Source of the DNA: Eledone cirrhosa
Taxonomy: Eukaryota
NCBI GenBank assembly: GCA_964016885.1
Contig: CAXHJY010001176.1
Coordinates: forward strand, 1 to 24,306
DNA: 24,306 nucleotides
Reading direction: 5' to 3'
Both the position numbers and the translations under genes were made by a program. The notes beneath the pieces were generated by a model that did no database searches, was not told where the DNA came from, and saw only the letters and a program-made list of their open reading frames with translations. Below, piece after piece: positions 1,514 through 14,598 of the stretch (position 1 is the stretch's first letter; each line of letters begins with the position of its first letter).

Positions 1514-1579
1514 TATTTTATCTGATGAATGCGCACCATAATTTGCTTTAGTTGCCCTTGAAATATGTATAATAAAATA
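1514..1579 (+). ncRNA. Type-I hammerhead ribozyme motif (minimal, Penelope-like type)
   Basis: Stem I TATTTTAT(1514-21)/ATAAAATA(1572-79) is a perfect 8 bp; core CTGATGA 1522-28; imperfect stem II ATGCGCA..TGCCCTT; GAAA 1560-63; loopless quasi-palindromic stem III ATATGTAT; cleavage triplet ATA (H17 at 1571). Confidence 0.75.
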
Positions 1580-1832
1580 AATATGGTTTTATAAATATAG
1601 TTTCCACTTATTAATATATTGTATGTATATATATATATATATATATATATGTGTGTGTGTGTGTATATATATACATTAACAGAGAAAGCCATATATATAT
1701 ATATCGTTGATTCTTTCGATCTTTGCTTTAAAAGTTTCTTCTGAATCTAAGAAACATCTATTTTTGAGCGCAGAATTAACAGAATTAATTTTTTCCAAAA
1801 CCTTACGACTAAATATTTGGTGTGTACATACT

Positions 1833-2013
1833 GAGTGGGTAATAGGAAAAAGTATGACCCCGACGGCAGACTCAGTCCAGTAATAGCCGTCGAAACGGCT
1901 TGATCTCTGCCGTCGGGGTCATACTTTTTCCTATTACCCACTCTACTACCTTAAGTATTGAGTACTCTGGTGCATTATGGTCCATCTGGTTCCTTACCAC
2001 AGTTCTTTCGTTA
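1833..2013 (+). mobile_element. (TA)n-anchored ~135-bp repeat element, copy A, with 5' fold-back
   Basis: 1877-2013 is homologous to 21399-21532 and to the reverse complement of 19345-19455; perfect 38-bp inverted repeat 1833-1870/1906-1943; runs into (TA)n. Confidence 0.85.
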
Positions 2014-2089
2014 TATATATATATATATATATATATTTATATATATTTATATATATAAATTTATATCTATATACATGTATATACATATA

Positions 2090-2132
2090 TAACGAAGGAA
2101 TTGTGGTAAGGAACCAGATGGACCATAACGCA
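2090..2132 (-). mobile_element. Truncated copy B of the (TA)n-anchored element, tail-to-tail with copy A across a TA tract
   Basis: TAACGAAGGAATTGTGGTAAGGAACCAGATGGACCATAACGCA is a near reverse complement of about 1971-2013. Confidence 0.85.
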
Positions 2133-2432
2133 AGGATTCTGTCGATCGATTGGTTGTTGATTAGGCGATACCCGCTGATGAAGCCGCATAAGCCGATTGT
2201 GCATTGTTGCCTAATATATGCAGACAGATAAGGCAGTGCACCCTACTGCTGCATTAGTGCGGCAGAAACTCGAGTCCGGGAACCTTATAGGCACCCGTTT
2301 TACGTGTGTTGTGTTGAAGCAAATAACTTTGTGTATACTCTGGTAATGTATCTTACATTGCCCATGGAGTGCGCTGAGATACAACCGGTACTGGCATTGA
2401 TAAATATGCTGGGTCCGTCAACCCTTATTAAA
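2133..2432 (+). mobile_element. Probable Penelope-like element pseudo-LTR fragment containing the hammerhead, ending in (TA)n
   Basis: Contains the minimal hammerhead. Such motifs are established hallmarks of Penelope-like element terminal repeats. No RT or GIY-YIG ORF is seen, so the assignment is inferred. Confidence 0.5.
2171..2280 (+). ncRNA. Type-I hammerhead ribozyme motif with long stem II
   Basis: Stem I CCCG(2171-74)/CGGG(2277-80), extendable by AGG/CCT; CTGATGA 2175-81; stem II GCCGCA-TAA...TTA-G-TGCGGC enclosing further pairings; GAAA 2265-68; palindromic stem III ACTCGAGT; canonical GTC triplet ending at 2276. Confidence 0.88.
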
Positions 2433-2518
2433 TATATATATATATATATATATATAAATGTATAAATATATACATATATATACATATACATGTATATACA
2501 TATGTATATATATATACA

Positions 2519-2570
2519 CTTTTACTCTTTTACTTGTTCCAGTCATCCGGCTGATGTCATGCTGGCGCAT
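2519..2570 (-). mobile_element. Octopus-type SINE 3' tail fragment
   Basis: CTCTTTTACTTGTTCCAGTCAT...CATGCTGG resembles, from memory, the reverse complement of the octopus SINE tail CCAGCATGGCCGCAGTCAAATGACTGAAACAAGTAAAAGAG. Confidence 0.6.
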
Positions 2571-3039
2571 ATATGTATACATATATATATATATATATAT
2601 ATATAGATATATATATACATATACATATATATACATATGTATATATATATATATGCAAATATGTATATATACTTACACATATGTATATAAATACATATAT
2701 ATATATATATATATTATATATAATCAATAAAAAATAACACAAGGGATAAATTAGTGATAGAGAAAACTTGGAAAATATGATCACGTGGACAGTTCCCGCT
2801 CATCGCTTGTCTTCTGGGATATTCTAAAGACAGGACAGTCTTCCCACTACAACAATAGTGTCTAAAGGAAGACAGCGTTACATACAATATGGATGTATGT
2901 GGAATCATATAGTGTAAGTTTATATACAATAAACATACGGTAGCCTCAACATGAAAGGGAAATATAACGATATACACACATATACGCACATACACACACA
3001 TACACATACTTACGTGTGTGTATATGCAAAATATAAACA

Positions 3040-3116
3040 CAGTACAATGAAGAAATTTATTATTTTAATGCCTAATACACTAGGTAGAGGATCGTGACGT
3101 TTCGGACACTGGTCCT
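3040..3116 (-). mobile_element. Penelope-like fragment with a 5'-truncated hammerhead
   Basis: The minus strand reads A-GGAC-CAGT-GTCC-GAAACGTC (perfect stem II, GAAA, ACGT palindrome, GTC). The CTGANG part is missing, and AATAAA lies downstream. Confidence 0.55.
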
Positions 3117-3144
3117 GCCTTGTGGTAGGTGTTTTTGTTGAAAC

Positions 3145-13390: not shown

Positions 13391-13488
13391 CAGTTTATAT
13401 TTTCTGTGATACATACCACGTTTCATAACCTTTTGCCTTCCACTAAGCCAACCCTTTTCATTATTATTATTGTTATTGTTATTATCAA

Positions 13489-13745
13489 AAGGAGCGGTGG
13501 ATTAACAGTATCAGTAGAGGGTCGTACGCCATGCTTTTCAGGAGTTGCGACCTTTTTATGGTCTGAGTTCAAACCCCACCGTCGTTTACTTTGCCTTTCG
13601 TCCTTACGGGGTCGATAAAATAATGCACTGGAATTATTGGTGGCCTTGTGCCAAAAGTAGAAACAATTATTAGAAGGAAGTGGTGCATTTCAACCAGTTT
13701 GTTGAAAGGTGGGGGAGAGTAGCAAGCATGGTCCGTGTGAATGGG
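13489..13745 (+). mobile_element. tRNA-derived octopus SINE
   Basis: Homologous to 18625-18814; B box GAGTTCAAAC at 13565; shared TCCTTACGGGGTCGATAAAATAA core. Confidence 0.8.
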
Positions 13746-13805
13746 CCTGCTTTGAGTAGACACCTATAGATAAGTAGGGTTTGCGATGAAAGCAAGTCAG
13801 TCACA

Positions 13806-14270
13806 AATATATATATATATATATATATATATTTATATATATATATATATTTATATATATATATTTATTTATATATATATATATTTATATATATATATTT
13901 ATTTATATATATATATATATATATATTTATATATATATATATATTTATATATATATATATATTTATATATATATATATATATATATATATTTATATATAT
14001 ATATATATATATATATTTATATATATATATATATATATATATTTATATATATTTATATATATATATATATTTATATATATTTATATATATATATATATAT
14101 ATATATTTATATATATATATATATATATATATATTTTTATATATATATATTTATATATATATATATTTATATATATATATATTTATATATATATATATTT
14201 ATATATATATATATATATTTATATATATATATATATATTTATATATATATATATATTTATATATATATAT
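13806..14270. repeat. (TA)n array with TT interruptions
   Basis: Seen directly. Confidence 0.97.
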
Positions 14271-14288
14271 AGGAAAAGTTCCAGGACC

Positions 14289-14331
14289 CCGAGAACAAAT
14301 GATTCACTTTATTCAGATCCTCTGCTCAGTC
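14289..14331 (-). ncRNA. Degenerate inverted twin of the 14349 hammerhead
   Basis: The reverse complement reads GACTGAG-CAGAGGA-TCTGAATAAAGT-GAAT-CATTTGTT-CTCGG; both core motifs are mutated; about 5 mismatches in 40 nt to the + copy. Confidence 0.55.
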
Positions 14332-14348
14332 TAAATGAAGTTGTACGA

Positions 14349-14388
14349 CCGAGCTGAGGATCCGAATAAGGTGAAACATTTGTTCTTG
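14349..14388 (+). ncRNA. Minimal type-I hammerhead ribozyme motif
   Basis: CCGAG-CTGAGGA(14354-60)-TCCGAATAAGGT-GAAA(14373-76)-CATTTGT-T-CTTG. Stem I is CGAG/CTTG, and the inverted twin shows CTCGG, the perfect partner. Stem II is weak. Confidence 0.6.
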
Positions 14389-14563
14389 ATATGGTGAACT
14401 AACTGTTGTGAAACTACCTCTACCAAACTCGTGCTATGGACTGAGTGCTCTACTTCTACGGATATAACACTCCAGTATTCTACTAATATTTATATATATA
14501 TATATGAGAATGTTGAAGTTTGGTTGAAGCATTGTGGAATAAAAACTTTCCCCCTCGGAAAAC

Positions 14564-14598
14564 CCCCAGTTGATGGATGCGAAATCCGAAATATAGGG
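14564..14598 (+). ncRNA. Degenerate minimal hammerhead
   Basis: CCC-CAGTTGA-T-GGAT-GCGAA-ATCC-GAAA-TATA-GGG: stems I, II and III are present, but the core has two mismatches to CTGATGA. Confidence 0.45.

Follow-up and report, generated by a model that had tools for sequence, protein, structure and literature searches.

Six hammerhead ribozyme motifs, named H1 to H6, are present in a 24,306-nt stretch of animal DNA from Eledone cirrhosa (contig CAXHJY010001176.1), hereafter called the window. With a probability of about 0.8, they are decayed type I hammerheads lying in inert, 5'-truncated 3' ends (pseudo-long terminal repeat, pLTR, plus tail) of several unrelated Penelope-like element (PLE) families; target-primed reverse transcription would have placed them in AT-rich DNA. 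Judged by their anatomy, the fragments are likely closest to the Hydra clade, which targets (TA)n. The observations behind this reading are the hammerhead cores, the copy abundance and the repaired or variable helix II of two islands, the depth gradient across H1, and head-to-head inserts with unequal arms and TA-rich flanks. Of the window, 38% is masked as microsatellite, and the remainder consists of 56 short islands. In a scan of the whole window against Rfam, matches of microsatellite to microRNA models dominate, and no hammerhead is among the 150 of 409 matches listed.

Hammerhead motifs in the window

Three of the six motifs (H1, H2 and H4), all on the forward strand, possess letter-perfect CUGANGA, GAAA and UH elements in the type I order, and the descriptor scan places the intact cores at 1514-1579, 2167-2284 and 14346-14392. 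The full core is absent from the other three: H3 consists of the 3' half, the 5' core and the 5' arm of helix I both being absent, and H5 and H6 carry two core changes each (Table 1). A sequence-only reading of the window had named exactly this set, with intact cores at 1514, 2171 and 14349 and broken ones at 3096 and 14289 (minus strand) and at 14564 (plus strand), and its helix III words (ATATGTAT, ACTCGAGT, ACGT, ACATTTGT and ATAT) were read correctly. Their self-complementarity is evident by direct reading, with the reservation that ACATTTGT is an imperfect palindrome of 6/8 pairs. The label 'minimal', given to all of them, is loose, as the helix II region of the motif at 1514 measures 31 nt and that of the motif at 2171 measures 83 nt.

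Table 1. Hammerhead motifs, their islands and the palindromic inserts of the window.
Feature	Position	Strand	Remarks
H1, type I hammerhead motif	1514-1579	+	Descriptor match; predicted cut after 1571
H1 helix I	1514-1521/1572-1579	+	8 bp
H1 core	1522-1528; 1560-1563	+	CUGAUGA; GAAA
H1 helix II, decayed	1529-1559	+	31-nt region
H1 helix III	1563-1570	+	ATATGTAT
H1 insert, direct arm	1322-1612	+	3' end of high-copy, 5'-truncated repeat ending at TA tract
H1 insert, left end	1250-1321	-	High-copy; X1 depth 2.8e5-4.1e5
H2, type I hammerhead motif	2171-2280	+	CUGAUGA 2175-2181; predicted cut after C2276
H2 helices		+	Helix I 4 bp; 83-nt helix II region; GAAA 2265-2268; helix III ACTCGAGT
H2 island	2136-2430	+	~295-nt high-copy repeat; TA tract at 3' side only
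H3, 3' half only	3096-3115	-	Helix II GGAC/GTCC, GAAA, helix III ACGT, UC; direct reading
H4, type I hammerhead motif	14350-14388	+	CUGAGGA 14354-14360; GAAA 14373-14376; predicted cut after 14384
H5, inverted twin of H4	14289-14329	-	Two core changes; short arm of head-to-head insert 14272-14487
H6, broken minimal hammerhead	14564-14598	+	Core slot CAGTTGA (two changes), extra U; direct reading
Family X, head-to-head palindromic insert	1833-2000	+	Short left and long right arm; masked self-BLAST
Family X, further copy	2075-2132	-	
Family X, further copy	19346-19511		
Family X, further copy	21398-21530		
Family Y, palindromic insert	14808-14972	+	TA-rich tracts at both ends
Family Y, second copy	5016-5172		TA-rich tracts at both ends
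Family W, palindromic insert	4571-4790		Short left and long right arm; 150-nt palindrome, right arm ends at TA

A chance origin of the intact motifs can be dismissed, because two of them (1514 and 2171) pass a relaxed descriptor that has no match in any of 150 shuffles. This descriptor requires a helix I of at least 4 bp, a helix II paired to at least 60% and a helix III self-complementary to at least 66%, and the control was a set of 150 dinucleotide-shuffled versions of the non-microsatellite islands (14.6 kb). H4 (14349) passes the first descriptor only, not the relaxed one. The motifs are genuine, mostly damaged type I hammerhead sequences. The damage is apparent in folding: the hammerhead is the minimum-energy fold of none of the six window copies. 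The pairings of helices I to III can be drawn, helix II of H6 is present in the predicted fold, and H1 keeps helices I and II when it is given the letters found in the majority of its copies.

The individual motifs differ in their helices. In H2, an unpaired A stands on either side of helix II, and the self-dimer of helix III is computed at -10.7 kcal/mol. H4 has a helix II of 2 bp, flanked on both sides by an unpaired U, and a decayed helix I. The H6 motif combines a helix II GGAT/ATCC, with the pair G10.1-C11.1, with a GAAA at 14588-14591, a helix III ATAT, the dinucleotide UA and a helix I of 3 bp.

Other CUGANGA or UUGANGA words occur in the window (4093, 9473 and 15675, 15112 and 18101 on the minus strand, and others) and were rejected as ribozymes, their helices being missing. 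At two of these places, 15675 (plus) and 15112 (minus), CUGANGA is followed by GAAA after only 4-5 nt, without helices I to III; these are possibly deleted remnants.

Copies, truncation and inverted arms

Copy abundance was assessed with public contigs from 4 of 24 runs, aligned to positions 1250-2430 and thereby covering the H1 and H2 islands. X1 is the main run, X7 a second sample and X4 a second organism; depths are summed over contigs and are not equal to copy number. Over the H1 core, the X1 depth is 3.0e5-8.3e5, compared with 3-21 in the unique stretch 1650-1809. It rises from 1.8e4 (1370-1409) to 2.3e6 (1570-1609), and this climb toward the 3' end is the pattern of 5'-truncated retrocopies. 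The H2 island has an X1 depth of 2.3e4-9.8e4 (2.3e4-4.6e4 over the motif), and several contigs start matching it at 2134-2144. Both repeats are also present in X7 and X4, and X5 contains the tail of H1 only, followed by TA. As a crude bracket inferred from depth, there would be hundreds to 2e5 copies of H1 and tens to 1e4 copies of H2. Neither of the two islands tested is single-copy or uniform in its stems, the finding that the sequence-only reading had declared fatal to itself.

Variation among the copies is concordant with a conserved fold. The majority letters of H1, an A at 1530 (99.5% of the X1 depth) and a G at 1550 (98.8%), bring back two pairs of helix II; with them, helix II goes from 17 to 19 of 20 pairs and from +6.4 to -4.0 kcal/mol. 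A 52% variant at 1567 leaves helix III self-complementary, and no core change was found among the 40 of 79 variant rows listed. Among the loose ends before 1555-1560, the same GAAA and tail are preceded by other helix II arms, and one end reads CUGACGA; sister subfamilies with different helix II arms thus exist in the H1 family. The repair and variation of helix II, together with the retention of helix III and of the core, indicate that the structure was under selection in the parent family.

The H1 insert may be inverted at its left end. In 8 of the 15 joints listed (37 in all), positions 1280-1321 are joined to 1437-1558, and a loose end that follows 1321 agrees, by eye, with the mirror of 1603-1612 at 8/10 letters. 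The stretch 1250-1321 also has an 11-nt motif common to the tails of families X and Y. This motif, which was defined post hoc and is weak evidence, has five matches against 0.08 expected and one exact match in the tail of Hydra-2_Amil. Region 1250-1321 is possibly the tail of the H1 element in inverted orientation.

A head-to-head arrangement is presented by H4 and H5, which occupy the long and the short arm of one insert (14272-14487) with TA at both outer ends. The two ribozymes, recognised as twins from the start, are identical at 35/40 positions, and a C-G pair in helix II of H4 corresponds to U-A in H5. After the cut site, the two arms extend over 22 and ~104 nt.

TA-rich tracts adjoin both outer ends in 6 of the 9 units inspected (H1, H4/H5, H6, Ya, Yb and Xc) and one end in the other three (H2, Xa and W). 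The cut sites are 22-373 nt from the next (TA)4. The upper value belongs to H3, which has a (CA)/(TG) tract on one side and a SINE-like (short interspersed nuclear element) piece on the other. The statement that each motif is bounded by TA is therefore wrong for H3, and it is half right for H2, with TA at its 3' side only. The flanks fit TA targeting without demonstrating it.

Palindromic families X, Y and W

Inverted and tandem repeats in the window were searched by masked self-BLAST, which returned six self-inverted stretches with complex arms. Five of them are head-to-head palindromes from four families, two belonging to X and one each to H4/H5, Y and W; the sixth is made of two X ends facing each other across a TA tract. 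Families X, Y and W had escaped the sequence-only reading. Family X has the highest depth in the aligned region, up to 3.1e6, and ends at TA; two alternative 3' ends ~65 nt apart are present, with loose ends at 1934. The 3' tails share 40% column identity in a common alignment, which yields no common consensus. A fragment at 19221-19290, beside TA, resembles the X tail and may represent a further related family.

A candidate 3' half hammerhead was located in each of the three families. The right arm of X begins with one (GAAA at 1892, a 5-bp helix III and GUC at 1914). Its counterpart in Y has a GAAA at 14839, a 4-bp helix III and UU, and that of W, at 4595-4604 on the minus strand, has the helix III AGATCT. 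In 3/3 families, the half motif is at most 60 nt away from the palindrome centre, against a background of 0.043 per site, in a comparison made post hoc; the second X palindrome misses the strict half-motif filter through mutation. As a class, half motifs in the window are not above chance (hairpin-type, 4 vs. 1.6 expected, P 0.07; palindrome-type, 5 vs. 3.2 expected, P 0.22), and no Rfam match was found in family X; the half hammerheads of X, Y and W are therefore kept as candidates.

Each mirror arm resembles its own partner more than the sister copy: 30/31 vs. 26/31 for Yb, 15/16 vs. 14/16 for Ya and 38/38 vs. 30/33 for Xa. It is conceivable, if rather unlikely, that X, Y and W, the most abundant repeats here, are palindromic mini-derivatives of Penelope-like ends and that their centre is the helix II of the ribozyme. 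A reverse transcriptase (RT) would then copy the hairpin and the cDNA would fold back and prime itself; the H1 RNA would be primed twice, with only the tail inverted; and helix II would act as a signal for second-strand synthesis, apart from catalysis. By such a fold-back, each insertion would create afresh a mirror image in place of the 5' catalytic half. If true, the three families would preserve a natural archive of twin priming by PLEs within TA tracts.

Probable Penelope-like affinity and competing explanations

The assignment to PLEs rests on RNA anatomy and insertion structure, because neither a protein remnant nor an array was found. The H1 and H2 islands each hold a hammerhead with a short palindromic helix III in an interspersed multi-copy family. 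The 5' truncation, the adjacent inverted copy and the one-arm tail appear in the H1 depth gradient and in the head-to-head H4/H5 insert. This anatomy matches that of published PLEs, best that of the Hydra clade.

In PMC8557442 (Craig et al. 2021), Hydra-clade hammerheads lie ~100-200 nt from the 3' end, (TA)n is preferred by 26 of the 27 Hydra families listed, including Hydra-1_Obim of Octopus bimaculoides, and in many ribozymes of the clade helix II is flanked on either side by an unpaired U, a feature of H4 too. An inverted, 5'-truncated copy and a one-sided tail are described there and in PMC3846280. The motifs of the window share with this clade the type I hammerhead near the 3' end with a short, near-palindromic helix III, the U, A or C at the cut site, the (TA)n flanks and the adjacent inverted truncated copy; H2, H4 and H5 also share the unpaired base on both sides of helix II. 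They differ from it in the longer helix II regions of H1 and H2 (31 and 83 nt) and in sequence from the published consensus ribozymes, and the protein motifs that define the clade (RWK, DKT, a CxCX5C linker and no CCHH) have no coding remnant here. The Naiad PLEs of Octopus, according to the same source, likewise prefer (TA)n and leave tandem and inverted remnants. However, canonical hammerheads are described there as missing from Naiads; H1, H2 and H4, in contrast, combine full cores with helices.

Minimal-hammerhead PLE families also offer parallels. According to PMC4209133, an animal genome contains many heterogeneous families of this type, most of them solo and associated with truncated PLEs, with opposite-strand pairs, an extra base before helix II, a palindromic helix III and weak cleavage as dimers only. 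Likewise, the window contains several unrelated families, mostly as solo truncated copies, with an opposite-strand pair, an extra base before helix II and a predicted dimer action. H3 and H6 further share with them G10.1-C11.1 and a 2-nt palindromic insert in helix III. In contrast, the helix III words of H1, H2 and H4 (8 nt) are longer than in the strict minimal type, and the window copies are decayed.

From these precedents, the formation of the inserts would be as follows. An RT/GIY-YIG protein, encoded by the element at another place in the genome, would nick both strands of AT-rich DNA. Downstream of the ribozyme, two neighbouring sites would prime reverse transcription, which would usually stop after 50-300 nt, leaving a solo end or a head-to-head pair with all or half of the ribozyme; the inverted arms would arise by second-strand priming or by self-priming. 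Cleavage of the parent RNA by the ribozyme would be weak, proceeding either in dimers held together by the self-complementary helix III or with the help of a protein. The dimer model is given in PMC6765202, which cites Lunse et al. In PMC11167929, cutting of both strands at AT-rich DNA was obtained in vitro, two RT start sites bound the tail and a protein-assisted ribozyme is described, and in PMC3846280 inverted pLTRs, one-sided tails and junction palindromes are interpreted as self-priming. The copies present in the window are themselves probably inert passengers; that they are clustered is probably due to a TA-rich region in which such insertions accumulate, and not to any shared role.

Several results weigh against this explanation. 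No motif reaches the gathering score of the Rfam model Hammerhead_1 (34 bits; the model is built for a short helix II): H4 has 21.0 bits at 14348-14390 (E 0.017, 511-nt search), H2 has 13.9 bits at 2169-2282, and the motifs at 1514, 3096, 14289 and 14564 have no match to it. The RT and GIY-YIG domains, which the sequence-only reading had proposed to find linked to the islands, were not matched by Pfam in any of 60 read-through frames over the main islands, where only sub-threshold matches (BRCT, C2H2 and DUFs) occur, and no fragment is tied to a PLE protein; given their length, the fragments would not be expected to extend into the open reading frame. Copy abundance is established for two of the six motifs. 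Four motifs of 11-14 nt, from H1, H2, H4 and X, are absent from the published Naiad, Chlamys and Hydra consensus files, and the Hydra-1_Obim ribozyme differs in sequence from the motifs here. The putative tail arms, longer by ~65-80 nt, exceed published tails, which measure 30-40 bp. Finally, the distance from cut site to TA is not significantly short relative to random unmasked positions (5 independent units, P 0.12-0.21), because TA tract fills 22-27% of the window; the same test on all six motifs gives P 0.04-0.09.

The sequence-only reading had placed the motifs in several unrelated Penelope-like or retrozyme families. The Penelope-like part is supported, with two tested islands in high copy number, repaired or alternative helix II arms and a fitting anatomy; the retrozyme part is not supported. 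Non-LTR retrozymes (LTR, long terminal repeat) resemble the motifs in being short, protein-free, provided with a type I hammerhead and likely PLE-derived, and they are reported in a mollusc and as PLE derivatives that are partly monomeric (PMC7229834; bioRxiv 10.64898/2026.07.22.740005). In this explanation, the islands would be retrozyme monomers: protein-free units that are transcribed, released by a hammerhead at either end, closed into circles and put back into the genome by the enzyme of a PLE. The best candidate is H2, its ~295 nt fitting units of 150-400 nt and its contigs beginning at clustered positions. However, retrozymes are defined by tandem units (at least two consecutive ones with a full hammerhead) and circular RNA, and the window contains no tandem hammerhead-bearing repeat. 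Nor does any of the 15 joints listed (of 37) connect the 3' end of an island back to its own 5' end. The ribozyme is internal to the unit and TA stands at its end, as in a truncated insertion, and the H1 gradient likewise fits truncation; monomeric retrozymes are hence improbable here.

Two other explanations keep PLE ends and question part of the reading. In one, the TA setting is passive, without targeting: microsatellites would have expanded around inserts already old, or inserts would simply persist where one quarter of the sequence is TA. The non-significant distance test is in its favour, as are H3, not bounded by TA, and the one-sided tracts of H2, Xa and W. We consider it unlikely, given the TA-rich tracts abutting both ends of six units and the loose ends of other copies, which read TA at 1599 (X5) and at 1934 (X1, 137 contigs). 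It should be noted that reads break at TA tracts and that the 3' ends of other copies are visible in few loose ends only. The (TA)n preference published for hammerhead-bearing PLEs (PMC8557442) also speaks against a passive setting. In the other, X, Y and W are DNA transposons resembling miniature inverted-repeat transposable elements (MITEs) with a TA target, their half hammerheads are due to chance, and only H1, H2 and H4 derive from PLEs. The X arms at 19346 and 21530 indeed bracket 2.2 kb like terminal inverted repeats, a competing 6-bp hairpin surrounds the GAAA of X, which lacks an Rfam match, and half motifs alone are not above chance. On the contrary, the position of the half motif near the centre in all three families (post hoc), the unequal arms, as in H4/H5, and the greater likeness of mirror arms to their own partner than to the sister copy point away from such transposons. 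This origin of X, Y and W is doubtful, though a real possibility.

For the preferred explanation, PLE ends in TA-rich DNA, much has a precedent in print: hammerheads in PLE ends, many families per genome, and the (TA)n preference, also in an octopus element. As this preference is already published for hammerhead-bearing PLEs, it is not new. The families of the window seem undescribed at the ribozyme level in the literature searched. The available part of PMC13282606 reports 31 recently active PLE families in Octopus vulgaris and does not mention ribozymes. The families may already stand in repeat libraries such as Repbase or Dfam; a library built from this genome would probably list them under unknown repeats, SINEs or MITEs. 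Exact-pattern scans for the H1, H2 and X motifs returned nothing in metagenome, viral and prokaryote contigs, as expected for animal repeats. The useful part is the very high-copy palindromic inserts, with helix II as their possible centre, together with the putative tail-only inverted arm. Such inserts would allow a genome-wide test of PLE second-strand synthesis and of the origin of inverted junctions, named as an open question in the available parts of the literature.

Further repeats are present in the window. SINE-like copies occur at 13489-13670, 18624-18815, 3146-3196 and 18402-18433, two of them also beside short TA runs. The first three are presumably of an octopus SINE, a label for which a literature search with a 17-nt piece gave no confirmation. 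Between two X arms, at 19507-21182, lies a young tandem repeat with a 713-nt unit in ~2.35 copies, 96-98% identical, whose frames have no Pfam match. Two related pieces of another interspersed repeat family, with a local identity of 71-98%, are located at 15873-16171 and 16200-16600.

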